This document shows, in pieces, positions 876 through 20,000 of a DNA stretch of 20,000 nucleotides. The position numbers were made by a program, and so were the translations under genes. Position 1 is the stretch's first letter. Each line of letters begins with the position of its first letter. The stretch is taken from contig PS015401.1 in the NCBI GenBank assembly GCA_048213135.1, positions 45,229-65,228 of the forward strand, written 5' to 3'. This DNA comes from Reclinomonas americana ATCC 50394. Its lineage: Eukaryota. The notes under the pieces are model-generated. The model saw nothing but the letters and a program-made list of their open reading frames with translations, ran no database searches and was not told where the DNA came from.

Positions 876-958
876 GCGTCGGTGGCCGAGTGGTTAAGGC
901 GTTGGACTTGAAATCCAATGGGGGTGACCCCGCGCACGTTCAAACCGTGCCCGACGCG
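876..958 (+). tRNA. tRNA-Ser, anticodon TGA, intronless
   Basis: Full cloverleaf: acceptor stem GCGTCGG/CCGACGC, discriminator G, D arm GCCGAGTGGTTAAGGC, anticodon arm TTGGA-CTTGAAA-TCCAA, long variable arm GGGG-TGA-CCCC, T arm GCACG-TTCAAAC-CGTGC; no encoded CCA. Confidence 0.96.
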
Positions 959-963
959 CTCTC

Positions 964-1955: not shown

Positions 1956-2534
1956 TGACTATGTGCCATGAGCGTGTGTGTGTGTGGAGAGAGAGAGAGA
2001 GAAGAGTGATATCGACGCGGTGTCACATGCACGCATCAGCATCAAAGATGACTGGCAGCGAGCTGCACACGGGTGTGCGAGAGGGTGAGAGGAGAAAGGA
2101 AGGAGTGCACTCTGTCGAGCACCGCTGCGGATGAACACCCATGAGCAACGAAAGGCTGCAGAATTCACNNNNNNNNNNNNNNNNNNNNNNNNNNNNNNNN
2201 NNNNNNNNNNNNNNNNGGAGAGCAGTTTCTTCTGATCAGTGGTGATTGGTTGTGTTTTCGTACCGCGCTTGATCGTTGTTGGGAGAGCCATCGCGCGAGG
2301 ACGACGAGGGACGCGGTGGCTTGGGATGACTCATCAAAGATCGATCGTCTCACGTCCTCCGCCCACCACNNNNNNNNNNNNNNNNNNNNTCACTCACCCA
2401 CACTCACACTCCTCTCTCACTCACTTCACTCATTCTGTCTCTCATGATCATCTATTCACCCTCTCTCTCTTCTTCTCCTTCTATCCTCATGTCCGACTTG
2501 CTCACCGTGCCTTTCCCTCTTCGCTCTCCCACAG

Positions 2535-5500
2535 TCGCGCACTGGCCAGCTACCTGCTCCAGTCAGTGGACAGCGTGACCGCGGGATCATCCTCAGCAGC
2601 AGTCGCACCGCCACACTCCCGATCGCAACGCTCGCCCTCGCCGCCTGCGCTGCTGGTCACCACCAACTCACAGACGAACCTCGCCCGAGCCTACAAGGCG
2701 TTTGGGCAGACCACGTCCAATGTCATGCCGCAAAAGTTTCGTAACACCCTTGCGATCGTCGTGATATCGGACAGTCGCTGCGGGTTCGGAGACAGAGAGA
2801 CCGAGAAGAAAGCATCCTCTGATCTGTGTGTTCCGACCTCTTTTGGGTCTTGCACTGACCGTGTATTCGTGTCACGCAGACGACAGCGTCCAGTGTCCGC
2901 AGTGACTGCTGCGGCACCTGCAGCTGGCACGGCGAATGGCCTCACCGACAGTCGAGTTCGTGGGGCTGGCGGTGCTGCGGCCTCGCGGTACCATCGTCCC
3001 GGCAGTGCGGTCACGTCGGCATCGTCGGCCAGTGGCAAACGATCGCCTGGTTGCGTCTTTCCCCTTTCCCCCCTCGTTCTCCTCACCGACGCCGTGTCTC
3101 ACTTTTCACACCATTCGCAGCTCCGTCGATGCTCTTTCACGGATCGTCGCTCTCGGCGACCTCGTCGTCGTCATCGTCGATGCCCGTCAGTCGTGCACGT
3201 GCGAAGCGAGCACGAGAAAAGGCCGAGCAACGCATCGCTAGTTATAGTGCGCGGGGTGCCGAGACTGCAACAGCAGCGGCAGCAGCAGCGGGTGCGGAGC
3301 AGGAGAACACGCAGCCAGAGGTAAGCCATGCCTCTTTGTCGTCCATGATCATGCTCGTTTTTCTTTGTGTTGGCTGACGCCGCACGCATGCAGTCGACCG
3401 CCGTCACCAAGGCAGCGAGTCCAGCGGCTGCTGTCGCTGCGGCCGCGCTGGACGAGGCATTGAAGATTGGAGGGACGAGCTCCGAATCCGAGTCGTCGTC
3501 CGACGATGAGTCCGACAGCGACAAGGGCAGTGAGAAGCGACGGACGTCGGTCACGCCGCCAGCGCGTGCGCCAAGTTTCACCGCCATGCGGCCGGCCGAC
3601 ATTGTTGTGGACACACCGACACCCGTGGCTGCACCGCCAGCAGCAGTGGCGGAGAAGGAACAACAGCAGCAGCAGCAGCAGGCCGCTGCAAGTGATAAGC
3701 GCCGCCGACCGGTACGCACACACTACTGCCTCTTTCATTATGCCCACCTGTGCATCTGATTGACTCTCTTTCTCTTTCCCGTGGCCAGCAGTCGCGACAG
3801 GAGCGTCATCGGTCGCTGAGTGTCGACTCGCTTGGCGTGCACTTTGCGGAGCCGACCGCCAACGGCAAGGCCAACAACGGCGCACAGTCGCCGAGTGAGA
3901 CCACCACGGCCAGTGGATCGCAAAAGGGCACACAAAAGACAAACGAGCGCACCTTTGAGGATGTGACACTGGCCACTCGGCAACGCAGCGCCAGCGCCTC
4001 GTCCGTGCTTTCATCACCGACCGTAGGGCAAAAGGTCATTCCTGTGGTGAGTACGCGTGCACGTGCGCGCGCCCCGGCCGTGTCTGCGTTGCTCATTCTC
4101 GTACACAGCCGCAACATCGACCGAGCTCGCGAGGGAGCAGCACTGGAGGGGATCATTCGCGCCGTGCGAGCGTGCAACGAGACGACATTGAGCGCGAGTT
4201 TACCTTGCGCCTCGGTGCCGGCGGTGGCACCGGTGGTAACATTCCGTGGCTTGAGTCCTCACCCAGTGGCACTGGCGAGGCGGGCGGTGTGCCCCGCCTG
4301 CATCGCATGACGCCATCTCCTGAACGTCGTGGTGCGTCGAGTTATTCTCGCCACTTGCACTCATCGCCGCCGCTCATTTCTTTCGCTTCTGCGAGAACAG
4401 GCCGGAGCCGCACGCGTGATGTGATTGAGCAGTCGAGTCATCCACGCACCGCCTCGCGGTCACACAGTCCGCTCGACTCACCCGGACAGCACTACTCCAG
4501 CCGCTTGGGTCGTCTGGTCAACAGTTTGTCGGTGTTCGATCCCGAGTTCATGGAGACGCCACTGGAGAAGATTGTCAAGCGCCGCAAGCGTGTGGTGCAG
4601 CAACAGGCTCCTTCGCAGCAACAGCAGTTTTACACGGCCTCACACACACCGAAAGCCGCCAGCCGCACTGATTTCGACACCGACAACAAGTCGTCTGTAT
4701 CGTCGCAACCAGGCGATGGTGCGTGATTCTTGCCTGGTTGACAGCGCATGCATGAGGTACTCATTGCACCGTGTTGCAGAAACAACGCCCGATCTGCTCT
4801 CCACCTCACCCGCCCCTCGATCGCGCAACAAGTCGTACGGTGACTCGGGATTCACATACGCGTCGTCCATTTTGTCGCCGCCCTCCAGCGTTGCGTTCTC
4901 CGCAGTCAGTCTCTCTCTCTCCTCCTGTCTGTTGACAGTTTCCTGTGATATCGATTGCAGCAAACAACGCAGCGAGGGCCAGCCGCGGGACGTCCCCAAG
5001 TGGTTTATGAGGAGACCACGGACTGGACGCAGACCAAGAAGGCCGACGTGCTGGGCGTCTTTGAGGCTTTCTGCAATCAGCCGCTCGAATTCATGGCCGA
5101 GTGTGGCATCTACATTCCCCACACGTGCCTGTTTTCTCAGGGACAGGTCGGTTTCTTTCTTTGTTTCGAAGCTCATTCCGTCGTCAGTGTCTCATCCGGC
5201 TGGTAGATTGTTGTGTGGTACCACATGGAGGGCAAGATGATCAACCGTGTGCTCGGATCCACCGTCAATCGGCGCGACATTTACCAGGCGTTTGTGCCGA
5301 AAGATCTGGCCTCGGACGACGAGATTGTTGCTGTGCTCTTGCACCAAAAGGAGACCGACGGCGCCGAAGGACAGGCACACTCGACGTACCTCACCGCCGC
5401 CCAACTCGGTGCGTCTTTCCGTGTGTCACGTGATTGCTGTATGTTTGTGTCTGTGCGATATTGACCGTGTACGCACAGAGTCGCTGCTGAAGACCGGCTG

Positions 5501-6529
5501 GAGCATCACTGGTCTCTTGCAAAAGTTTATCCGCGGCAAATCCGGCCGAGCTGGTGCGTGCTGCAGCGATGCTGATGCTGTTCCCCCGTGCTTCACTCCT
5601 CACCTTTGATACCGATGCACCGCAGCCGTCATTCGATGTGTGGCCGTCAACGGAGAGATGCGCAGCGTCAGTCGTCGCATCAACTTGCACTCGTTGTACG
5701 ACACGCGCATCGATCCGACAGAGCGAGCGGTGCGTCTCCATGAGCCAGGACCCACTTCGTCTTCTTCTTCTCCATCTCTCTGTCCGCTCATTTGTGTTGC
5801 ACCAGTGCACTTTTGATGGTCCCGACCGCCTGTCCGTGGAGAGCGACGTGAATCAGCCGATTGTGCTGCGCATCCTCGAGCGTGCCTGCCGCAATCTCTC
5901 CACTCGCCTGGCCTACGATGGTGCGCGTGTGGTTCGCCTGGTGGCCTATTTCAAGACAACGCAGAGCCGAGTGTGGTTCATGTGGCCGGAAACGATCAGC
6001 ATGACGTACTCGCTAGGAGTGAGTGGATCTGCCTCTCTGCCGCTCTGCCCTCTTTTGTTTTGCTGATCATAGTGCCTTCTGATAGGTCTCGCTGAAGCGT
6101 CCGGTGCTTGCGCCCTCCATCATGATGCAAAAGGTGCTCACACACAAGGACCCGTTCCTTGATGGCGATGGTCGAGAGCGTCGGTTTGTGTTTCGAATTC
6201 GGTGAACTCTCTTGCATGCTGGACTGCTGACGACTGTGGCATACGCAGCGGTTTCGTGGCATCACCGCCGAAGATGGAGACGTCACCGACAAGGGCCAGC
6301 CGCAAGGAACTGCGACTCGATCGCAGTTTCAAATGCGCTGTGTGCGACTGCGTCGCTGGTTTGTGCACGCCACTCGCACATCCTTCCCCGAGATTACTAA
6401 TTTGGACGTGCGTGCATAACAGACATTCGGAACAGTTACGAGGTCAGCTACAAGACCATCATTGTGTACGATTACCTGAAGCGACACCGGACGCTGCCGC
6501 GACTCCGACACAACATGCCACCGAAGGAT
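2535..6529 (+). CDS. large multi-exon uncharacterised protein: long Ser/Ala/Arg-rich N-terminal region plus a globular domain and a CxxC motif (start not defined; 3' exons appear on the minus strand at 6636-8977)
   Basis: Chain of about 16 exons separated by short GT-AG introns; junctions checked at 3050-3120, 4890-4960 and 6359-6422 keep frame. Globular part: ...GIYIPHTCLF...WYH...GLLQKFIRGK...RRINLHSLYDTRIDPTERA CTFDGPD...RVVRLVAYFKTTQSRVWFMW...FKCAVCDC...SYKTII. From memory this resembles an unnamed family of hypothetical proteins in oomycetes and alveolates (unverified). Confidence 0.75.
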
Positions 6530-6635
6530 GTTGCGTTCTGTTCTCTCGCCTGCCGACCTTCTGCTGATNNNNNNNNNNNNNNNNNNNNNNNNNNNNNNNN
6601 NNNNNNNNNNNNNNNNNNNNNNNNNNNNNNNNNNN

Positions 6636-7286
6636 TGCTCGGGATCTTTACAGAGAAGGAAGAGGTGTATGTGTGTGAGTGCATGCACGTTCAATGGCAC
6701 CACGTGCAGTGCCAACAACAACAACACAAACCTCGAGTTAGGAGTCGCACTGGAGGCGCGAGGTTTCGGCTCCTCCACCGCCACTGGAACCGCTGGTGGT
6801 TGTCTCTTCTTGAACAGACTGGAGGGGCTGTCGGCGCCCTTGATGAAGTCGATAAAGACGTCGGATGCCACGTACTTGAGGTTGCTGTGTTGCGAGATGG
6901 TGAGCGCTTCGAACACCAACAACACATGCATACATATGCTCGACTCACCTGTCGTTGTACTCAAGACAACACGAGATGCACACGGGCACCGTCTTGCGCA
7001 AAAAGTCGTTCTGTCCACGCAGACGGTAGTATTCTTGTGGGAACTCGGCCAGATCCTTTTCTGCCTTCAGAATGAGAGCAGGTGGTGGTGTGCGGTCGCG
7101 TGGATCCGTCGACCGGACGCGTCGTACTGGAGTTCGACTGCTGGCGGCTCGTGACGACGTGCGAGACGAGTGCTGAGCAGACTGTGTCGACGACGCATGA
7201 TGCTGGTCCGGTAGGTGTGGTACGTGCATCTTCAAGTTGCCCGAGTGACTCGATCGTGCCGAGGATGCCCCAGATGCCTCGGAGGA
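6636..7286 (-). CDS. internal exons (copy A: 7286-6949 and 6884-6732), probably continuing the 2535-6529 gene
   Basis: TTAG acceptor, phase 0; SSEASG...PPPALILKAEKDLAEFPQEYYRLRGQNDFLRKTVPVCISCCLEYND, GTGAGT..CAG intron, SNLKYVASDVFIDFIKG...PNSR, GTTTGT donor. Confidence 0.7.
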
Positions 7287-7334
7287 CTAATGTGTGTGTG
7301 AGAGAGAGAGAGAGAAGGGAGGGTGAGTACGATT

Positions 7335-7820
7335 CTACGCAGTCGAATGCAGTACAGAGGTCGCAACATCGGCGGTGTTGCGCTTGCCCGGTGTGAGGAA
7401 ACCAGAAGCATCAGCGCCACTGGGAACTGCCAGCTCTCGCTCCTCCTGCTGCAGCGCGGCGGTCTCGTCGGCCACGCGGCGTCGACGCTCTTCCAGCATG
7501 GCGGCCGTGCGTTGTGCGCGTGGGGAGAACGGCTTGGACGTCAGGCTGAGGTGCATGAGGGTGAGGTCCTTGCCGGCCACGGGATCGGCAGAGGCCTCTG
7601 ATCGCGCGCTGCTTGAAATGTGCGGCAGCGTGTCGGCGACGGCGGTGCTGCTCTTGGCATTGGCTGTCGACGGTCTCCGTATGGAAGCTGCACTCTGCCG
7701 CCGAGAGCCATTCACCGAGCGATTGGCGTCGCCCTCGACTGAACTGCTGGACAGGTTCGGATCGGCGGCAGCGTCGGTGGCCGCCTTCCATTCCGACAAC
7801 CGGTGATCATGCGCTCGACT
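7335..7820 (-). CDS. terminal exon (low complexity and coiled coil), probably the last exon of the same gene
   Basis: CACAG acceptor, open frame SRAHDHRLSEW...MLEERRRRVADETAALQQEERE...VLHSTA, TAG stop. Confidence 0.6.
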   Translation of the reverse strand, partial: SRAHDHRLSEWKAATDAAADPNLSSSSVEGDANRSVNGSRRQSAASIRRPSTANAKSSTAVADTLPHISSSARSEASADPVAGKDLTLMHLSLTSKPFSPRAQRTAAMLEERRRRVADETAALQQEERELAVPSGADASGFLTPGKRNTADVATSVLHSTA

Positions 7821-8325
7821 CTGTGCGACCATCAACACAACGTGAGTGAGCGGCNNNNNNNNNNNNNNNNNNNNNNNNNNNNNNNNNNNNNNNNNNNNNN
7901 NNNNNNNNNNNNNNNNNNNNNNNNNNNNNNNNNNNNNNNNNNNNNNNNNNNNNNNNNNNNNNNNNNNNNNNNNNNNNNNNNNNNNNNNNNNNNNNNNNNN
8001 NNNNNNNNNNNNNNNNNNNNNNNNNNNNNNNNNNNNNNNNNNNNNNNNNNNNNNNNNNNNNNNNNNNNNNNNNNNNNNNNNNNNNNNNNNNNNNNNNNNN
8101 NNNNNNNNNNNNNNNNNNNNNNNNNNNNNNNNNNNNNNNNNNNNNNNNNNNNNNNNNNNNNNNNNNNNNNNNNNNNNNNNNNNNNNNNNNNNNNNNNNNN
8201 NNNNNNNNNNNNNNNNNNNNNNNNNNNNNNNNNNNNNNNNNNNNNNNNNNNNNNNNNNNNNNNNNNNNNNNNNNNNNNNNNNNNNNNNNNNNNNNNNNNN
8301 NNNNNNNNNNNNNNNNNNNNNNNNN

Positions 8326-8977
8326 TGCTCGGGATCTTTGCGGAGAAGGAAGAGGTGTATGTGTGTGAGTGCATGCACGTTCAACGGCACCACGTGCAGT
8401 GCCACACAACAACAACACAAACCTCGAGTTAGGAGTCGCACTGGAGGCGCGAGGTTTCGGCTCCTCCACCGCCACTGGAACCGCTGGTGGCTGTCTCTTC
8501 TTGAACAGACTGGAGGGGCTGTCGGCGCCCTTGATGAAGTCGATAAAGACGTCGGATGCCACGTACTTGAGGTTGCTGTGTTGCGAGATGGTGAGCGCTT
8601 CGAACACCAACAACACAAGCGTACATATGCTCGACTCACCTGTCGTTGTACTCAAGACAACACGAGATGCACACGGGCACCGTCTTGCGCAAAAAGTCGT
8701 TCTGCCCACGCAAACGGTAGTATTCTTGTGGGAACTCGGCCAGATCCTTTTCTGCCTTTAGAATGAGAGCAGGTGGTGGTGTGCGGTCGCGTGGATCCGT
8801 CGACCGGCCGCGTCGTACTGGAGTTCGACTGCTGGCGGCTCGTGACGACGTGCGAGACGAGTGCTGAGCAGACTGCGTCGACGACGCATGATGCTGGTCC
8901 GGTAGGTGTGGTACGTGCATCTTCAAGTTGCCCGAGTGACTCGATCGTGCCGAGGATGCCCCAGATGCCTCGGAGGA
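8326..8977 (-). CDS. internal exons (copy B: 8977-8640 and 8575-8423), near-identical to copy A
   Basis: Same exons and splice sites as copy A; one amino-acid difference seen (RRVRST vs RRGRST). Confidence 0.7.
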
Positions 8978-9671
8978 CTAATGTNNNNNNNNNNNNNNNN
9001 NNNNNNNNNNNNNNNNNNNNNNNNNNNNNNNNNNNNNNNNNNNNNNNNNNNNNNNNNNNNNNNNNNNNNNNNNNNNNNNNNNNNNNNNNNNNNNNNNNNN
9101 NNNNNNNNNNNNNNNNNNNNNNNNNNNNNNNNNNNNNNNNNNNNNNNNNNNNNNNNNNNNNNNNNNNNNNNNNNNNNNNNNNNNNNNNNNNNNNNNNNNN
9201 NNNNNNNNNNNNNNNNNNNNNNNNNNNNNNNNNNNNNNNNNNNNNNNNNNNNNNNNNNNNNNNNNNNNNNNNNNNNNNNNNNNNNNNNNNNNNNNNNNNN
9301 NNNNNNNNNNNNNNNNNNNNNNNNNNNNNNNNNNNNNNNNNNNNNNNNNNNNNNNNNNNNNNNNNNNNNNNNNNNNNNNNNNNNNNNNNNNNNNNNNNNN
9401 NNNNNNNNNNNNNNNNNNNNNNNNNNNNNNNNNNNNNNNNNNNNNNNNNNNNNNNNNNNNNNNNNNNNNNNNNNNNNNNNNNNNNNNNNNNNNNNNNNNN
9501 NNNNNNNNNNNNNNNNNNNNNNNNCCACCAGCACGTGCTCAGTCGGCGAAACCCGCACGACGCGTGCAGTTGGATACCACAGCCTCCAGCTCGTTCTTCT
9601 TGACACAGATGAACACGTGAACAGTGGGGAAACGGGGGAGAACGGAGAGTGAATATGTGTTTTGCAGTGTT

Positions 9672-12584
9672 TCACTTTTTCTGCTTCTTCAGCGGCGGTC
9701 CAGTGTCCGCAGCTCCAGCACTGTTTTCACATGCACGAGCACCACACGTCAACGGTTGATGGAAACACAACAGAGATCACGACACGCAAGGCACGCAACG
9801 CTGGTCTCTTGCCACCGCCACCGAGCGCAAACGAAATCTTGGCCTTGCTACTGGAAACCGCACCTCCGGCAGCAGAGGCAGTAACAGCAGCAGCAGGAGG
9901 CTTGGGTGCGCCACCACTGTCGGCCACTCTCCGCTCATCGGGACCGGTGGCACCACTGATGGCGGCCGCTGCGGCCGCAGCAGCAGTAGCAGCCGCGGTG
10001 GATGCACCAAGTGACGACACCGCCGACGACGGCATGTACNNNNNNNNNNNNNNNNNNNNGATGAACCCGAGCCACCCAACACATCATGCTCCCAGTGTAC
10101 GACAGCGGCGTCCACCGACGCCGTCATGGGATTGATGAGCGGGAGCATGAGACCGCCTTGGCCGGCGGGGACACTTGCACGCAGCAGACGGAGTTTCTCC
10201 GTCATTTCCTTCTTCAGCGCCTCGTACAGCTTGCTGGCCTGCACACGCATGATCGTGAGACACGTAAGGGGAAGTAGCGAGAGGCACTTATTTTTTGGCC
10301 TGCACCTTTTCCGTACGTCCACTGGTGACAGCCATCCAGTAATGCCGCAACAACTCGGAGCACATGCGAAACACCTTGTGCACAGTCTTCATGAACTTAC
10401 GATCGGCCTCGTCGGTGGACTCTGCCGCAGCGGCTGCACGCTTGCCGAGACCAGCCAGTGCCTGCTCCTCTTGCGACTGTCGGTACAGCGCCGACAGCGA
10501 CGACGCGCAACTTGCGGTGTGCAGCAGATTCGTGCGCAGCATCTGCGTGCGCTCGGCAGTGGAGCGCAGATGCACGCCCAGTCGCGTGCATGCCGCCAGG
10601 CAAGCCTGTCATCCGAATACACTAGTTGAGCAACACGCATGCACTCTGTCAAGAAATAAAGCGCGTACCTGTCGCGTCTGGAACCGCTTGGCTCGACTCT
10701 GTGCCAGCATGGGCGCAATGGTCGCCGAGTTGGAGACCACGGCCGAAGCAGACTTTTTTGGTGTCTGTGACGACGATCCAGAGGCAGTGGTCGTTGTGGT
10801 CGTTGTCGACGATGATGCAGAGTCGTACGCACTGGAGCCACTGCCTTCGAAATACATGGAGGGGTTCTCGATGTTGAGCACTTGGAAGCGTGCCGAGTCG
10901 TCGTGACGCACCAGGTCGTCGATCACCGGCGCCAGTTTGCTTCTGTGACCCAAGCGAAGAATTGAATGAGCACCACACATCCTTCCTACTCGCGCGCACA
11001 CACACACGACGACTCAACTGTTCCGGGTGCTTCTCCTCCTGATGGGCACTGTTGATGACCAGCGATGACGAATGATTGTAGAGCGCAAACAACTCGGTAG
11101 TGAACTCGTCGGACGCTGCGGCCGAGCTGGCCGATGTGGCTTGCGAGCCGATTCCCATCATCTGCTCCTTGTTGAACTCGCCGCGAAGACCATATCCCTG
11201 CGAGAAGCAGAAAAGTGAGCTTGTATGTGTGGGTGTGCATCTTGAGTTGAAAGCAATCGCACCGGTCCAAGTGACTCCTCGCGCAGAATGTCAACACCCG
11301 GGCGCACCTCGCCCGGTTTGGCCTCCAGATGACGATCTGATGATCCACACACACACACATGTGAGTGTGCAGTCGTCGACGACAGACAGCAGACGCAAAA
11401 CGCGTGGATGCCCAACGCAACGGTGCTTATCGGCTGTCGATTGCACGTGCGTGCCGCCGGCTTCGGAACGAGCACGCTTCGACAGTCGATCGAAATCCTC
11501 CACACTCAAGTTGTCGGGCAGGAACCAGAAAAAGTCGACCTTGAGGGCCGACTGCCAGAACTGTTGCTCGCTCATCTGCGCATGCATTCACACACGGTGG
11601 GGTGGGTGGGTGGCAGGACGATGAATATCAGGCGACCGACAATGACACACACCACCAGCGGTACTTTCTGCTCATAGTCCTTCTTCAACTGCGGCTTGCG
11701 GGCGAAAATGTGCTGAATGACCGCCGGGCTGATGGACAGGCGCTTCTGGATGATGGTGTTGGGCGTGCCCACACGAGCCGAGGTCACCACACCGTCGGGT
11801 CCCACAGTGACCGAGGACCCGGCGGTCGTTCTGGTGGTCGTGGTCGTTGTCGCTGCAGCCGACGACTGCCCCGATGACGACGACTGTGGCGCGACACCGC
11901 GCGCCTGATCGTGACTCTCCTGCGCCTCCACCATGCGCCAAAACTCGTCCTCAGTCATGGCCTGCGACGACACCAGTTGCTCATGCATCTCCCGCAGCGA
12001 CCGATCCGAAGCCAGACGATACGCTCGCACTCCCACAATGTCTTTCTTCTCCTTCTCCTTGTCAGCACTCGCAGCAGCAGACGACGACGGCGCTGTCGCT
12101 GCAGCCAAGGCCGGTGTCGGAGGATGCCGCTTCCGTCCGAGTCGAATGCTCTCCTTTAGTCGCTCCCGGTCGGCCAGCGTCAGAAACGCAATCACAAACG
12201 AAGGTCCGGCATTCAGCGTCATCTTCATGCGAAGATCCGAGTCCTTTTTCGCCACCGAGTGCGCTGCGCACATGTCAAAAACAGAGAACAGAGTGAGACA
12301 AGTCAAACCTGCAATGGAATTCTCCAATGAGCGCGCACGCAACTGTTCAAATCCGCAAACAACACACGCGTGGAGTGCCCCGCCGGCGACAGCTTGTTCC
12401 CCATGGTGGCTGCAATGCGTGCAGCGGCGGCGCCCATGGCGCCCATGTCGTTCACCTCCACCTGCTCTCCATTCGCGTGCACCAAGGCCGACTGCCGCAC
12501 AAACGTCACATCGGCGTCTCGCACGACCAGCGCACCCTCGACCCCGTCACGCGTGCACGGCGCCGTGTCGAGAGCCTCGCTCAT
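9672..12584 (-). CDS. GTF2H1: TFIIH subunit p62 / TFB1-like protein (PH-like N-terminus, two BSD-like domains), about 9 exons
   Basis: N-terminal PH-like segment (GALVVRDADVTF...VLFADLN/THSVAKKDSDLRMKMTL); BSD motifs LREMHEQLVSSQAMTEDEFW and IQHIFARKPQLKKDYEQKVP..MSEQQFW; GYG, YNHSSSLV, IDDL..LNIENPSMYF and ELLRHYW motifs typical of p62; ends PPLKKQKK-TGA. Confidence 0.88.
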
Positions 12585-12656
12585 CAAAGTGTGATTGATT
12601 GGATTCAATGTGCCAATCAGTCCGTCGACGCGGCGCTTCACACACAGCTCATCAGC
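12585..12656. promoter_or_regulatory. candidate bidirectional promoter (72 bp between divergent ATGs)
   Basis: p62 ATG at 12584 (-) and next gene ATG at 12657 (+); contains TGATTGATTGG and GCCAATCA, i.e. CCAAT boxes in both orientations. Depends on both start codons being right. Confidence 0.5.
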
Positions 12657-15600
12657 ATGTCTGCGCCGGCGCCAGCGGGCTCCGTGGTGGCATCGGCGAC
12701 TGCGGATGCGGGCGAGCGAGAGGGCGCGTCACCGGTGGCAGAGATGGCCGAGTTGAGCGTGACCGACACCTCGGTGGAGTCGGAGGAGGCAGGCGATGTG
12801 CTGAGTGGAGGCGGCGCAGCGTCGGCATCCGCTGCGTCGGTGCTGAGTCCGCTGGCGGCTGTGGTGGCTCCGCAGGTGCGTTTCCCGAACATGGCAAACA
12901 GGCAGAGCGTGAAAGACGAGCAGCGTGCTCCTTTTGTGTGCGAGTGAGTGGCGTGTCTCTGTGTGTCACATTCGTGGCGTGAGATCAAGTGCATGCATGC
13001 ATGTGTGTGTATCTCACGTTGCTGGGGTCGTTGTGTTTTTTTGTTTGTGTGTCATGGGCATGTCCGTGTTGCGCTCTGTCTCCTGTGTGCTCTCTCTCTC
13101 TCTGTCGTCCTCGCTCCCTCTCTTGCTGTGTTCATGAGCATGCGGTTGCGATGTGGCCGTCTGTCGATAGAGGGGGCTATTTTCCGACGACGTATCCACG
13201 AATCTTCCTGATTGCCACAGCTGCCCGACGGTACTCGGATCTATCTGACGTCGTTTGCACATCCGGTGGTGAAGCGATCGCGTGGTGGTCCCGGCAGGGC
13301 GTCGGCCGCTGCTTCTGCTGCTGCTGCCGCAACTGCTGCTGCCCCTGCATCGTCATCATCACATGGAGCAGCAGACGAGGGATCATCTGCACCAGCATCG
13401 TCGTCGGGGGAGGGGGAGTTGCCGGTGAATGCACCATGCGACTGCACATTCAACATCATCAAGAAGAACATGATGTCGGATGGGAGCGCGGTGGTGTACG
13501 TGCCGTCGCCGAACCGCGTGTCGACGTTTGGGTGGAGTCTGTCGCGCGACTCGTCGTTGCGATCTCGGCACATTATTCAGTGGCTGTTTGAGAACCAGCA
13601 TGTGGCGCGCCTGAAGGATCGGTGTCTGCGTGACCTGCTGGCACACATCAGCGCACGAGTCGGGAGCAAGACGGTCTTCAACTTTGGCTTCTGCTGCAGC
13701 AACGGAGGGCAGCGCTCGGTGGCGTTCGCCGAGCGCATCAGGGCGGATCTGGAGGCACTCTTTGTGGGTCAGAATGTGCGTCTGCCTGTCGAACGTGCGT
13801 GTATGTGTGCAAGTCGTAGTGACAGTGCCGGCGCAACCAAACAGGTGCATGTGGTGTCGCGTCATCGTGATGTGTTCGAATACGAAAGACGGCAGAATGA
13901 GTCGTCGGGGAGCACACGCCCACGCGGCAAGTACATTTGGCAGTACGCGGAGCCAGTGGAGTACGAGGTGGGTATGGAGACAGCGGCGGCCGCGGCGGCG
14001 TCGACACAGTCATACACGCCGACCAACAGGGGCTCCAGCTCCACACCAACTTCAGCAGCAGCTGCATCAGCCGTGACCTCTCCCACGTCAGCATTGTCTC
14101 CCACCTCGACATCTAGTAGCCACTACAATCCACACTTGCCGGATCCATCATGGAGCCACCCGGCGTCTCCGCACTGCCCGATATGGCACGACATGTCGGC
14201 CGCGGACTCGGCTGCGTTGGAGCGCGCCTTTGAGCAGAATCCGATTAACAGGAGTGCCACAGTCCAGCTGTCGNNNNNNNNNNNNNNNNNNNNNNNNNNN
14301 NNNNNNNNNNNNNNNNNNNNNNNNNNNNNNNNNNNNNNNNNNNNNNNNNNNNNNNNNNNNNNNNNNNNNNNNNNNNNNNNNNNNNNNNNNNNNNNNNNNN
14401 NNNNNNNNNNNNNNNNNNNNNNNNNNNNNNNNNNNNNNNNNNNNNNNNNNNNNNNNNNNNNNNNNNNNNNNNNNNNNNNNNNNNNNNNNNNNNNNNNNNN
14501 NNNNNNNNNNNNNNNNNNNNNNNNNNNNNNNGAGACGCACCTTGTAGGCACTGAAACTGCTCCAGCAGTGCGCCGTGTGCATCAGCTGTCCCAGCAACAC
14601 GCGACATATTGTGCCATGTCGCGAGTCGTCAAACGCGTACAGCATCACGCCCGCGCTCTCAAACGAGTGTGCGATATCCGACGACGCAAAGACACCGCGC
14701 TCCACGTGCAGCACCGCTCGCCGTGTCGGATCAAATCGGAACAGTGGACGCACCACCAGCACCGCTTCGCCACCCGTCTCCAATGTGACGTAACCCGTCG
14801 TGAAATCCACTCTACACATCTGTGTTGCCGTGTGCACAGGTGAGAATGCATCGCCACCAACACACATGCGCACACACATTGCACTGCAGCCACGCGGACC
14901 TTTTCTTCGCCACTTGCTTGNNNNNNNNNNNNNNNNNNNNNNNNNNNNNNNNNNNNNNNNNNNNNNNNNNNNNNNNNNNNNNNNNNNNNNNNNNNNNNNN
15001 NNNNNNNNNNNNNNNNNNNNNNNNNNNNNNNNNNNNNNNNNNNNNNNNNNNNNNNNNNNNNNNNNNNNNNNNNNNNNNNNNNNNNNNNNNNNNNNNNNNN
15101 NNNNNNNNNNNNNNNNNNNNNNNNNNNNNNNNNNNNNNNNNNNNNNNNNNNNNNNNNNNNNNNNNNNNNNNNNNNNNNNNNNNNNNNNNNNNNNNNGTTG
15201 TGGTGAGACTTTTCTCTGCAGGCATGCTGCTCACCTCGTGGAGCAGCACGCGTCGGAGTCGCCACCGGCCACGGCACTGAGAGCATACTACGAACAGTCG
15301 CTGGGAGTGCTGATGTACGACATGCCACGCATGCTCAAGGCCTACGACGCAAATGGCGTGTACCGGGTCTACGACATTACGAACAGCTCTGTGTTGTACT
15401 TTGTACGAGTACCTTATGTGCCGGAGGTGGTGGATGCTTACCAATCGAGCGTCACTTACTATCGGTACGCGTGTCTCTCTCGCCAACCTGCGCGGTAATC
15501 CACATGGTCGCTGATATCCTCGCGTCGCAGACAACACGGTTACCGAACGGACATTGCCAAGCTCACGTGGTACAAGTTGTCGCAGATCCGACGCAGCTTG

Positions 15601-15928
15601 CGTGAGGTACACCCCGATGTTTTATGCGTGCGTGTGTGGTTGGGGATGACGGTGCGCTGACTCTTGTGTGCTGCAGGCCATGGCGGTCGGCGAATTGCAC
15701 GGCGTGTGTGTGGGCTGTGAACGCTCGCATCGCGAGCATGCGTTGCTCGGTCGGCCACTGGCGGAGGTGCTGGCCGTGGCAGAGGTTTGTCGGGGAGACT
15801 TCGTTCCCTTGCTTATATCGGCAACTCACTGATTGTTGGTGATGACGTAGGAGGGTGGCATTCTGCAAGCACTCGAGGTTTCAATTGGGTCTCACGGGCA
15901 GCTGCAGGGCAGTGTGGAGTACACATAG
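12657..15928 (+). CDS. multi-domain protein: RapZ C-terminal-like domain (CX5R), WWE-like domain, unknown C-terminal region
   Basis: Exons 12657-12875, 13221-13775, 13845-14273(gap) and several after 15197 ending ...GSVEYT-TAG. RapZ-C-like motifs: IYLTSF, VPSP, FGFCCSNGGQRSVAFAERI, SRHRD. WWE-like: YIWQY...WHDMSAADSAALERAFEQ. Joining across the N gaps is inferred. Confidence 0.7.
14541..14920 (-). CDS. two exons (14920-14900, 14819-14541) on an inverted contig, probably internal to the 12657-15928 gene
   Basis: QASGEEK, GTCCGC..CAG intron, MCRVDFTTGYVTLETG...FSAYK, GTGCGT donor; RVDF..TG fits the second half of a WWE domain. Confidence 0.6.
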
Positions 15929-16129
15929 CGCGCGTGTGTGGAGGCTAGTGCTTACTTTTTTGGGGGGTATAGATTTATGTGTATCGAGTGGAATTTGTTG
16001 TTGGTGTGTGTGTGTGTGTGTGTGTGAGGAGGTTGAAGCGAAGAAGAATAAGTGTGGAGTGATGGCGGTTGTCACTCTTTCGTCTTCCGTCCTTTTTTTA
16101 AAAAATTGAAAGCGTTGTTTGTTGGGCAA

Positions 16130-18099
16130 CTATGCGGGATACAGGGCGGCCCAGTTGCGCGAACGCACCACGGCCAGCAGTTCGTCTATCGTGATTCGCT
16201 TCTGGGTCATGGAGTCTCGCTCGCGCACAGTGACGCTATTGTCGGCGAGGCTCTCAAAATCGACGGTGACACAGAACGGGGTGCCGATCTCATCTTGCCG
16301 CCGGTATCGCTTGCCAATCGATTGTGTCACGTCAAAGTCGGTGCGCACCACGTCGACCATGGACTGGAAGAGTGAATTCGACAGCTGCACCAGCGGCTGA
16401 GCCAGAGGAGCAGGCGACAGCAAGTGAGTGAGGCAGACGGTAACGAATCTCCACATCATTCACCCTGCTTTGCCAAACCTCTTTCTTGGAGAGCGGCAGC
16501 ACGGCAAACTGGAACGGAGCGACCTCGGGGCGGAGGCAGAGTCGGATGCGACTGGTGCCGTCTTTGGAGGCCTCGACTTGGTCGACTCGGTACGCGTCCA
16601 GCAGAGTGGCGTACAGCAGCCTGCACGCATGTTTTGTCCTCGCTCAGTTCAACTACAGACGCAACTCGTGACCGCTGCGACTCACCGATCGAGTCCAACC
16701 GCAGGTTCGATGCAGTGCGGATAGAACGGCTCACTAGTGGCACCGGAGCGGAAGCGCAGATCCTGACCCGAGTGCGTCGCGTGTGCCTTCAGATCGTAAT
16801 CGGTGCGATTCGCAATGCCCCACAGTTCGCCCCATCCCCACGGGAACAAGAACTCAATGTCCGTGGTGCCCGCCGAGTAGTGCGCCACCTCCTGCACACA
16901 ATCACATGCACGCGCACGTACGTGAGTGCGGTGACGCCTTGCCACCTTCTCTCGTGCAACGCAACTCCAGGGCCGAATTCTCGCATCCGGAAGCTCTCCG
17001 GCCGCAGGCCCACCACGTTCTTCAACCAATCCACACAGAACGTGATCCAATACCGATACCATGTGGGCGACGACTCGGGCGCACAAAAGTACTCCATCTC
17101 CATCTGCTCAAACTCACGCGTGCGGAAGAGCAGGTGTCCCGGCGAGATCTCGTTGCGGAACGAGCGACCGGTCTGCGCCATGCCAAACGGCAGCTGCGGT
17201 CGCTCCGTCTGCACCAAGTCCGCAAAGTGTGTAAACATGCCTTGCGCCGTCTCCGGGCGCAGCGGCAGCACATCACTCGAGTCCTCGGTGCAGCCGAAAC
17301 GCGTCTCAAACAGCAAGTTGAACAGGCGTGGCGGAGACAACTGGCACTTGTTGGCCTTCGCATCGCCACACCCGCCGTGCAAGCCACGCGAGCGTGCAGC
17401 ATCCACAAAGAACTCACGGAACTCGTCCAGCGAGAGACCGGCAATCTTCTTGCCGGCCTCGTCGCCCAGTTGCTCCTCCACCAGCTTGTCCGCACGCGAT
17501 CGGCGACCGCATGTCTTGCACTCGACCAGTGGATCGGTAAAGTGCTCAATGTGGCCGGTTGCCTCCCACACTGCATGGGGCGGAAGTGAGACACGCAGCA
17601 GCAGCAGTGTCACATGCTTAAAGGAAAAGCACCCTTGCGCGACATCAAAATGCACGTCTCCACGCCAAACACATCGGGTCTGCGCTCCACAAAGTGTCGC
17701 CACCACAAGTCACGCAAGTTCTTCTTCATCTGCGTACCTGCGCGGTGTCTCGAGAGAGTCAGACGGGGCAGGGAGAGAGTGTGTGTGATGCGATGTATGC
17801 ATGCTTGTGTGTACCCAGTGGGCCATAATCAATCAGGCTCTCCACGCCACCGTAGATGCTGCTGTTGGCCATCACAAAGCCGCGGCGACGCAAGAGTCGT
17901 TCCACGGCTCCTGGTCCCTCGGCAGCCATCTTATCGTCGCCCTGCGCGCACACAAAGCACATCACTGATTACAGGCATGCATAACTCACTCGCGCTGTGT
18001 TCTCTCTACCACTGAAGCTGCGGGTAATGAGGTCGACCATCGCGCAGTGACAGGTGGCGAGAACAGTAAGCGCCCGCCACGGCGTGCAAGCAGCAGCAT
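16130..18099 (-). CDS. glyQS: glycyl-tRNA synthetase, bacterial-like homodimeric (alpha2) type, probably organellar; about 7 exons
   Basis: [41 protein letters not shown], motif 2 [51 protein letters not shown], motif 3 IEPAVGLDR, anticodon domain [22 protein letters not shown]. First exon uncertain. Confidence 0.95.
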
Positions 18100-18367
18100 T
18101 AATTCGTCGAGACCAAGAGGACAGGACTGATTTCAGCGTTTTTGTGTTTACTACTCTCTCACTCTCACTCTCACTCTCACTCTCTCGCTCGTTTTCCTCA
18201 TTCTTGTTGGTTATTCGACAATCACCGGCAAAAACAGTCATCCACTCCACACATACACACATGCAGACTCGCCTCACCCACATAGAACCAGATATACAAA
18301 ATCACACACGATGCAGCTGGATAGACGCCTGCTAAGTGCCGACAAGTGCGCAACGTGGTGCCAACTA

Positions 18368-20000
18368 TTATGCGACGTAATGGTAGAGACTCGAATCTGT
18401 GACGAGCGGGCACGCAGTCAGCAAAAAAAGAGGAGAACCCGCACACAAGCGCACACACACGCACCAGAGTCATCACGCCGCAGGAACTCGCGCAGAATGA
18501 GATCCTCGATACGAGTCTTGACTTGGCGCGGCTGTGGCCTGAACAGGTTGAGCTGTTGCAGGGTCTCCGCCACCAGCGCCTGATGAGAGAGCGTTCGTCG
18601 GGCCTTCATCACACGCACAATGCAGGCGTCAATCATGTAGCGCCGCTCCTGCTCACGCTCCTCCGGCTGACCGCCAGGCCCAGCCTTCTTCACCGTGATC
18701 TTCGGCAGCGGGATGCTGATCTTCAGTCGCTTGGTCTCGAACGCCTCGTTGAATACAACAGTCTCCTCCGCGCCCAGATTCTTGGCGCTGTTGATGCGCG
18801 TCAGGATCTGGAACTTGCCAGCACACAGACCCATGATGGCGCGCTTGACTTCGTCGAGCGGGATTCTGCAAGCGACAGGGCGGTCACAAAACGAGTGCAC
18901 GCAGCGAGCGACGGCAACGACGACGACGACGACGCAACTGTGTCATCTCGTGAATCTGCTGTACAGTGAGCTCGGCGTGCGTGTTGAAGAGGAGGCACAC
19001 GGATGCTTGGTGACCCGTCATGGACAACTCGCGCTTGCCAATGGTGAANNNNNNNNNNNNNNNNNNNNNNNNNNNNNNNNNNNNNNNNNNNNNNNNNNNN
19101 NNNNNNNNNNNNNNNNNNNNNNNNNNNNNNNNNNNNNNNNNNNNNNNNNNNNNNNNNNNNNNNNNNNNNNNNNNNNNNNNNNNNNNNNNNNNNNNNNNNN
19201 NNNNNNNNNNNNNNNNNNNNNNNNNNNNNNNNNNNNNNNNNNNNNNNNNNNNNNNNNNNNNNNNNNNNNNNNNNNNNNNNNNNNNNNNNNNNNNNNNNNN
19301 NNNNNNNNNNNNNNNNNNNNNNNNNNNNNNNNNNNNNNNNNNNNNNNNNNNNNNNNNNNNNNNNNNNNNNNNNNNNNNNNNNNNNNNNNNNNNNNNNNNN
19401 NNNNNNNNNNNNNNNNNNNNNNNNNNNNNNNNNNNNNNNNNNNNNNNNNNNNNNNNNNNNNNNNNNNNNNNNNNNNNNNNNNNNNNNNNNNNNNNNNNNN
19501 NNNNNNNNNNNNNNNNNNNNNNNNNNNNNNNNNNNNNNNNNNNNNNNNNNNNNNNNNNNNNNNNNNNNNNNNNNNNNNNNNNNNNNNNNNNNNNNNNNNN
19601 NNNNNNNNNNNNNNNNNNNNNNNNNNNNNNNNNNNNNNNNNNNNNNNNNNNNNNNNNNNNNNNNNNNNNNNNNNNNNNNNNNNNNNNNNNNNNNNNNNNN
19701 NNNNNNNNNGAAACCGTTCAGCGTGGCCTTGCCGAGGCTGTGGATCCATTGCAGAATGCGATTCGTGGTGCTGCTGTTGTAGAACTCGCGGAAGCGCTCC
19801 AAACAACTGGCCAACTCCTCCGGTGGCGTGAGCACATCCACAGGGAAGTGCGGCCAACTGCCGGTGGTGAGAACCTGCCGCCGCAAAAATCAACCCGTGT
19901 GAGGAGATCGCATGTACACATCAAGGCACACAATCCCCCACAAAAACGGCACCCACCAACGCCTGGAACTCCTTGATGGGTAGCCGCACAGCCTTGTCAG
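18368..20000 (-). CDS. cullin (cullin-1-like), 3' part
   Basis: VLTTGSWP, FREFY..RILQWIHSLG, QASVCLLFN, neddylation domain RRYMIDACIVRVMKARRTLSHQALVAE..VKTRIEDLILREFLRRD, end SLYHYVA-TAA. Confidence 0.96.
19049..19709. other. assembly gap (one of many N runs in the window)
   Basis: Run of N inside the cullin gene. Confidence 0.99.

Follow-up and report, generated by a model that had tools for sequence, protein, structure and literature searches.

A probable class of displaced GTTGCGT and GTTGAGT 5' splice sites in a 20-kb stretch of Reclinomonas americana nuclear DNA

Gene content of the window and placement of the GTTGMGT motif

In a 20,000-nucleotide stretch of nuclear DNA from Reclinomonas americana ATCC 50394 (contig PS015401.1 of assembly GCA_048213135.1, positions 45,229 to 65,228; hereafter, the window), we analyzed the 5' splice sites (donors) that begin with GTTGCGT or GTTGAGT, written together as GTTGMGT and referred to as the class. 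An earlier note on this DNA had proposed that this lineage uses such donors as a major class, read by U1 small nuclear RNA (snRNA) in a bulged pairing register, perhaps through a variant U1 or U6 snRNA or altered U1C or Luc7-type factors. In our analysis, the class is very probably real, and pairing with U1 in a register shifted by one base is, on balance, its best explanation. The window is the sole sample and was picked for the motif. It has the features of a GC-rich eukaryote, with tightly packed, intron-rich genes; GC content ranges from 51 to 62% across the N-free kilobases, and 11 runs of N total 3,246 bases. Gene models were assembled manually and verified through their translations, in place of an automatic donor-free gene finder (dynamic programming with a small codon table) that over- or under-spliced. 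The hand-built models yielded 37 donors in eight genes or gene pieces, listed here by their coordinates in the window.

Gene A, about 2500 to 6568, plus strand: no known family.
Gene B, 6636 to 7854, minus strand: has a partial second copy at 8326 to 8984, 98% identical.
Gene C, 9670 to 12584, minus strand: TFIIH p62-like, by a weak BSD match and p62-like relatives.
Gene D, 13200 to 14273, plus strand.
Gene E, 14532 to 14920, minus strand.
Gene F, 15197 to 15930, plus strand.
Gene G, 16130 to 17929, minus strand: bacterial-type glycyl-tRNA synthetase (GlyRS).
Gene H, 18460 to 20000, minus strand: cullin.

The motif was present at all nine coordinates given in the earlier note: 3050, 4890, and 6530 on the plus strand and 9799, 11018, 11421, 12343, 16965, and 18938 on the minus strand, where the motif start is the higher coordinate. 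A tenth copy, absent from that list, starts at 16665 (minus strand). The raw count is within chance, with 10 copies observed versus 7.08 ± 2.66 in shuffled sequences (36 of 200 shuffles reached 10). The nonrandomness of GTTGMGT is in its placement, not its raw number. Each of the 10 copies is in sense orientation relative to the gene that contains it, whereas the control words GTTGMG[AC] occurred 3 times in sense, 10 times in antisense, and 4 times in intergenic sequence (counting the gene B duplicate once; Fisher p = 3.6e-4). For the C variant taken separately, GTTGCGT was in sense in 9 of 9 cases and GTTGCG[AC] in 3, with 7 in antisense. Because words differing only in their last base are mostly antisense, the T at +7 forms part of the signal.

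Nine of the 10 copies sit on 9 of the 37 modeled donors, among 844 sense-strand GTs in all; a hypergeometric figure for this overlap would be inflated, since some donors were modeled with the motif in view. From the base frequencies at each position of the 37 donors, 0.14 GTTGMGT donors would be expected, versus the nine seen. Eight of these are GTTGCGT and one is GTTGAGT (11018), and the remaining GTTGCGT copy is not a donor. The earlier estimate of about 9 of roughly 40 introns in four genes agrees with our tally of 9 of 37, distributed over gene A, gene C, GlyRS, and cullin. The class share is therefore 24% (exact 95% confidence interval, 12 to 41%).

Class junctions recovered by donor-agnostic scoring

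The 10 copies of the motif are as follows. A slash marks the border between exon (lowercase) and intron, and posteriors are from the donor-agnostic score described below the list.

3050 to 3120, plus strand: gene A intron of 71 nt, donor ctg/GTTGCGTC, acceptor TCGCAG; frame change needed, 4 open reading frame (ORF)-compatible GT..AG options, posterior 0.97.
4890 to 4960, plus strand: gene A intron of 71 nt, donor agc/GTTGCGTT, acceptor TTGCAG or, alternatively, one at 4972; frame change needed with the acceptor ambiguous, 25 ORF-compatible options, donor posterior 0.455 + 0.356 (about 0.81).
6530 to 6568, plus strand: probable start of a gene A intron, donor gat/GTTGCGTT, acceptor lost in the N run at 6569 to 6635; the exon model stops at 6529 without a stop codon and the frame is open to the gap.
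9721 to 9799, minus strand: last intron of gene C, 79 nt, donor agc/GTTGCGTG, acceptor AAACAG; posterior 0.995 among 26 spliced options.
10943 to 11018, minus strand: gene C intron of 76 nt, donor aca/GTTGAGTC, acceptor TCACAG; frame change needed, posterior 0.93, flanking exons align to p62 homologues with a 4-residue gap at the junction.
11337 to 11421, minus strand: gene C intron of 85 nt, donor acc/GTTGCGTT, acceptor CATCAG; frame change needed, posterior 0.986 among 22 options.
12264 to 12343, minus strand: gene C intron 1, 80 nt, donor aca/GTTGCGTG, acceptor GCGCAG; frame change needed, posterior 0.99; read-through hits 4 stop codons, and the alignment to P0127 starts at the junction residue, N80 (weak support).
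16892 to 16965, minus strand: GlyRS intron 3, 74 nt, donor gga/GTTGCGTT, acceptor GTGCAG; anchored by homology, posterior 0.98.
18866 to 18938, minus strand: cullin intron of 73 nt, donor aca/GTTGCGTC, acceptor TTGCAG; anchored by homology, posterior 0.995.
16659 to 16665, minus strand: tenth GTTGCGT copy, not a donor, 20 nt inside the GlyRS intron at 16685 to 16621.

The GTGAGT donor of the intron that holds the tenth copy, at 16685, is fixed by homology to P0013; if the copy at 16665 served as donor with the same acceptor, the intron would be 45 nt long and the frame would be lost.

At each complete class donor, a strong in-phase YAG acceptor lies 71 to 85 nt downstream. The eight complete introns all have GT..AG termini, measure 71 to 85 nt, and give stop-free spliced models; they behave as U2-type GT-AG spliceosomal introns. 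We scored each frame-keeping GT..AG pair with equal weight for every GT, combining a codon model (2,786 codons), a second-order Markov model of introns, an acceptor matrix, and a length prior. The intron model and the acceptor matrix were trained on 27 nonclass introns, and the length prior was centered on their mean of 68 nt, which disfavors the longer class introns. Even so, the motif donor took the top rank at all eight complete sites (posteriors of 0.81 to 0.995). In a leave-one-out control, the modeled donor was recovered in 22 of 25 nonclass introns, with a median posterior of 0.95.

Other placements of the exon-intron border were considered and rejected. The second GT within the motif lies 5 nt downstream of the first and so cannot keep the frame with the same acceptor, as the earlier note had stated for the two anchored cases; it pairs only with other acceptors. 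A GC-AG border 3 nt downstream (GTT/GCGT) would add one residue relative to all homologues at both anchored sites and would also mean that every upstream exon ends in an invariant GTT, whichever of the three codon phases applies (1, 2, 1, 1, 2, 2, 0, and 2 at the eight sites). A border of the form G/TT...AGN is noncanonical, and just one of eight sites has a G following the acceptor. U12-type introns are defined by an RTATCCTT donor, which is absent; the donors here are GTTGCGT and GTTGAGT. The class is also not a repeat-derived (introner) family, because the intron bodies are no more alike than any two introns (mean local alignment scores of 9.0 within the class, 8.2 between class and nonclass introns, and 7.7 among nonclass introns).

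Junctions fixed by protein homology

The spliced GlyRS model encodes 479 amino acids (aa) and is stop-free. Its matches listed (the best 120 of about 8,000) are 410 to 576 aa long with 42 to 49% identity; those that carry names are bacterial, and none is named as eukaryotic. In tblastn searches with bacterial GlyRS homologues, homologue coordinates were contiguous (0 to 2 residues) across all five GlyRS introns. At the class junction at 16965, the anchor EFGPG/EVAHYS, cited in the earlier note, proved gapless against three homologues; the model REFGPG/EVAHYS aligns with P0013 (HSPQELSHYS) and P0050 (HGPDEMSHYS). The closest relative of the gene H cullin is P0121 (784 aa, 53% identity), followed by a Chromera velia protein (47%), and P0121 is colinear and gapless across both cullin introns. 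The second anchor of the earlier note, EMTQ/IPLDEVK at 18938, was likewise borne out: IHEMTQ/IPLDEVKRAIMGL is colinear with residues 628 to 650 of P0121, with IHEMTQ/IPLDEVK opposite VIDILG/LPPSETK. A metagenome scan with a cullin exon found no genomic DNA of relatives.

Gene C matched only BSD in Pfam, below threshold. With the 214-aa p62 exon as query, a word-indexed search of proteins returned no match, and searches of PDB with two p62 exons retrieved no p62. A HMMER scan found five weak p62 relatives; these fix the nonclass donor at 11652 (KVPLV/MSEQQFW versus NVPHKMDEKEFW) and anchor none of the four class junctions of gene C. Five gene A exons compared with Pfam gave no match.

Together, homology fixes eight junctions with no donor model (five in GlyRS, two in cullin, and one in p62). 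Two of these eight (25%) are GTTGCGT, in agreement with the 24% share among modeled donors. Protein colinearity thus fixes the junction at the GU for two of the nine class sites; the exact phosphate cut at 16965 and 18938 rests on the GT-AG rule, since a one-base shift of both borders leaves the protein unchanged.

Ordinary donors and features of class introns

The 28 nonclass donors are dominated by GTGCGT (6), GTGAGT (4), GTTTGT (4), GTACGC (3), GTACAC (2), and GTGTGT (2), with one each of GTGCGA, GTTTGG, GTAAGC, GTCGGT, GTGCAG, GTGCTT, and GTGGGT. Class introns were longer than nonclass introns, at 71 to 85 nt (mean, 76.1) versus 54 to 82 nt (mean, 68.3; Mann-Whitney p = 0.006). Where present, a CTNAY branch-like motif lies 20 to 32 nt from the 3' end in the class versus mostly 13 to 30 nt elsewhere. 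Donors of the form GTTTGT or GTTTGG make up 5 of the 37, at 6184, 6359, and 15785 on the plus strand and 6731 and 16478 on the minus strand. Counting these together with the GTTG class, T occupies the normally purine +3 position in 14 of 37 donors. Gene B holds a further probable intron, outside the 37, at 7287 to 7367 (minus strand), with acceptor CATTAG at 7287. Two candidate donors are in phase: gat/GTTGCGAC at 7367 (81 nt), which resembles the class except for an A at +7, and tct/GTACTGCA at 7355 (69 nt).

Proposed displacement of the U1 pairing register

The base preceding the junction differs sharply between the two sets of donors. The last exon base (-1) is G in 25 of 28 nonclass donors versus 1 of 9 class donors (Fisher p = 3.5e-5), and among homology-fixed junctions in 6 of 6 nonclass versus 0 of 2 class donors. 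The composition of class -1 bases (A4 C3 T1 G1) is instead similar to that of position -2 in ordinary donors (A10 C8 T7 G3). Three class sites read aCA/GTTG, which is CAG in the shifted frame. As the earlier note had recognized, the class has the form of the usual GTGMGT signal moved by one base. In our reading, xGTTGCGT corresponds to G/GTGCGT, with U in place of G+1 and the border one base upstream. When pairing was tallied against a U1 5' end of either the standard (ACUUAC) or the Mastigamoeba (ACGUAC) type, class donors paired at two to three of nine positions in the canonical register. Shifted downstream by one base, they matched the canonical CAG/GUGCGU pattern minus the C8 pair with either U1.

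We interpret these observations as a U1 register that is shifted by one base and serves an unusually high share of donors, a reading that we hold to be somewhat better than an even bet. Under a shifted register, GTTGCGT (8 sites) and GTTGAGT (1 site) would be genuine 5' splice sites of ordinary GT-AG introns, in which the usual last exon G becomes the first intron base and U occupies the place of the usual +1 G. C9 of U1 would pair with intron G+1, C8 would be the one mismatched base, and the usual pairs would follow at +3 to +7; the spliceosome would then cut at the sole available GU, which lies one base upstream of where U1 pairing by itself would place the junction. We propose that the word may be nearly invariant because one lost pair forces the other positions to be optimal.

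The bulged register advanced in the earlier note is also a reading of real donors: after canonical pairing at -1, +1, and +2, U1 would skip a bulged U at +3 (or +2) and pair again on GCGU. The motif can indeed be written as GT + T + GCGT, its in silico pair count in this register equals that of canonical GTGCGT plus one bulge, and a bulge at +3 (or +2) has been described for human sites (PMC4856993). However, C9 would then face exon position -1, and -1G would be expected to be kept or enriched rather than lost, as it is in all but one class donor; nor would class -1 bases be expected to look like ordinary -2 bases. Because -1G is lost, the shifted register is favored over a bulged U, and we regard the bulge as unlikely. 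The earlier proposal for this lineage is thus upheld in part: a discrete and frequent donor class exists in the window (9 of 37 modeled donors and 2 of 8 homology-fixed junctions), but the loss of -1G argues against its description as a bulged register.

Several points weigh against the reading of a frequent class in a shifted register. Class junctions were placed from sequence and gene models alone, and homology anchors just two of the nine. Seven class sites have other ORF-compatible GT..AG pairs, with 4 to 26 options each; the site at 6530 is beyond verification, its acceptor lying in an N run; and the splice at 9799 is not forced by the frame, as uninterrupted reading likewise yields a short tail. 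A mild circularity arises from the codon model, whose training exons were delimited by these same introns. The -1 statistic depends on the modeled nonclass donors, 3 of 25 of which were not top scored by the donor-agnostic method, and the pairing tallies used assumed U1 5' ends. The 24% share may be too high, because a single 20-kb window was picked for the motif.

Taken to their limit, some of these points would make the class largely a modeling artifact or chance, with several unanchored junctions lying elsewhere and the true share much below 24%. A raw motif count not above chance, the alternative frame-keeping pairs at seven sites, and the selection of the window for the motif would all be in keeping with this. 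In contrast, two junctions are fixed by homology, the motif is in sense in 10 of 10 cases while its sister words are mostly antisense, every complete site has a strong in-phase YAG acceptor at 71 to 85 nt, and a donor-agnostic score selects the motif at 8 of 8 sites despite a length prior that works against longer introns. We consider this explanation improbable.

A dedicated reader, either a second U1-like snRNA or a U1 with an altered 5' end, able to pair with GUUGCGU in the canonical register, would account for a word that is almost invariant (8 of 9 identical over seven bases, versus 12 hexamers among the 28 ordinary donors) and for class introns about 8 nt longer (p = 0.006), a hint of a separate population, and U1 5' ends do coevolve with donors in some protists (bioRxiv 10.1101/2022.06.08.495308), but it seems highly improbable, given that the window holds no snRNA gene (Rfam finds just a tRNA), that near-invariance is equally expected of a weakened shifted site, and that the GCGT and GAGT variants mirror the two commonest ordinary hexamers, as if one U1 read both. 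The broader possibility that the major spliceosome here has two parallel modes of 5' splice site recognition, a loose GTNNGY mode served by ordinary U1 and a rigid GUUGCGU mode, used by about a quarter of introns and served by a dedicated U1 paralogue or factor, would be a long shot of the same order. By analogy, and with equally little likelihood, two such modes would amount to a lineage-specific counterpart of the split between U11 and U12.

Relation to known donor systems

Roca and Krainer reportedly identified human 5' splice sites that use a "shifted" U1 register in 2009, and in 2012 Roca et al. reportedly added sites at which a single base, at +3 (or +2), bulges out. Human shifted sites resemble the class in that they match U1 poorly in the canonical register and well when shifted by one base and carry GUU followed by a normal +3 to +6 signal; they are cut at the GU, as class sites would be. 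They differ from it in their core, which is AAGU in the human sites versus GCGU or GAGU here, and in that the class is so far a matter of genomic sequence. They also differ in frequency. In humans, a small fraction of sites is known to use shifted or one-base-bulge registers; for all validated noncanonical registers together, the estimate is 1.5% of sites (PMC4856993), whereas a single word makes up 9 of 37 modeled donors in the window. Human bulge sites share with the class an extra U after the GU and a normal signal downstream of it; however, they keep the -1G pair, which the class has lost (1 of 9).

Atypical donors in protists take a different form. Entamoeba has a near-universal GUUUGU donor with a U1 of ACAAAC, and Mastigamoeba has a GUGCGC donor with a coevolved U1 of ACGUAC (bioRxiv 10.1101/2022.06.08.495308); in Thecamonas and Mamiellales, +4C donors occur with a standard U1 (bioRxiv 10.1101/2022.06.08.495308; PMC3879977; PMC2483917). 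GC-rich protists with GTGCGY as main donor (Mamiellales, Thecamonas, and Mastigamoeba) resemble the window, whose main donors are GTGCGT and GTGAGT; 5 of the 37 donors here are GTTTGK. The atypical donors of these protists represent a changed consensus in the normal register, whereas the window has a displaced class beside a main one. The accessible part of bioRxiv 10.1101/2022.06.08.495308 describes no such displaced second class. Mastigamoeba fits the window in its GC content of 60.7% and its +4C donors, but its mean intron of 137 bp and intergenic distance of 1.3 kb both exceed those of the window (PMC8136499). A literature text search with four spellings of the motif returned only an unrelated use, and no description of a lineage with a major shifted-register class was found; supplements, where donor logos may appear, lay outside both searches.

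Like the class, U12-type introns are a minority with a far more rigid 5' word than the majority. Unlike U12-type introns, the class shares its termini and downstream core with the local major class.

If RNA confirms these junctions, the class would represent a natural uncoupling of U1 register from cleavage site in a large share of introns, a situation that is rare in humans. It would then be possible to test how the spliceosome sets the scissile bond after U1 leaves (through U5, U6, and Prp8) and how much mispairing U1 tolerates. Gene finders trained on GTNNGT would missplice about one in four introns here, with frameshifted models as the result.

Other features of the window

The GlyRS is of the short bacterial dimeric type and has five spliceosomal introns. 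This combination suggests that the gene came from bacteria long ago or that its product is targeted to an organelle. Part of gene D (13470 to 13778, plus strand) weakly resembles the C-terminal domain of RapZ, a bacterial family (PF22740; E = 4.7e-4, 20.8 bits, below the cutoff of 27). Judging from this match, gene D is possibly also of bacterial origin.

The 3' part of gene B is duplicated (6636 to 7304 versus 8326 to 8984, about 98% identity), with N runs bounding each copy. The copies differ at 12 positions and by one 1-base indel over 659 aligned columns, and they look like either two alleles duplicated in the assembly or a very recent tandem duplicate. Upstream of gene A, a tRNA-Ser(TGA) gene lies between N runs at 876 to 959 (plus strand). 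Microsatellites of the types (CA)n, (GA)n, (CT)n, and (GTC)n are numerous, including those at 61 to 120, 541 to 644, 1977 to 2000, and 16001 to 16026, and homopolymeric runs of Q, A, S, and T occur in the coding exons of genes A and C.

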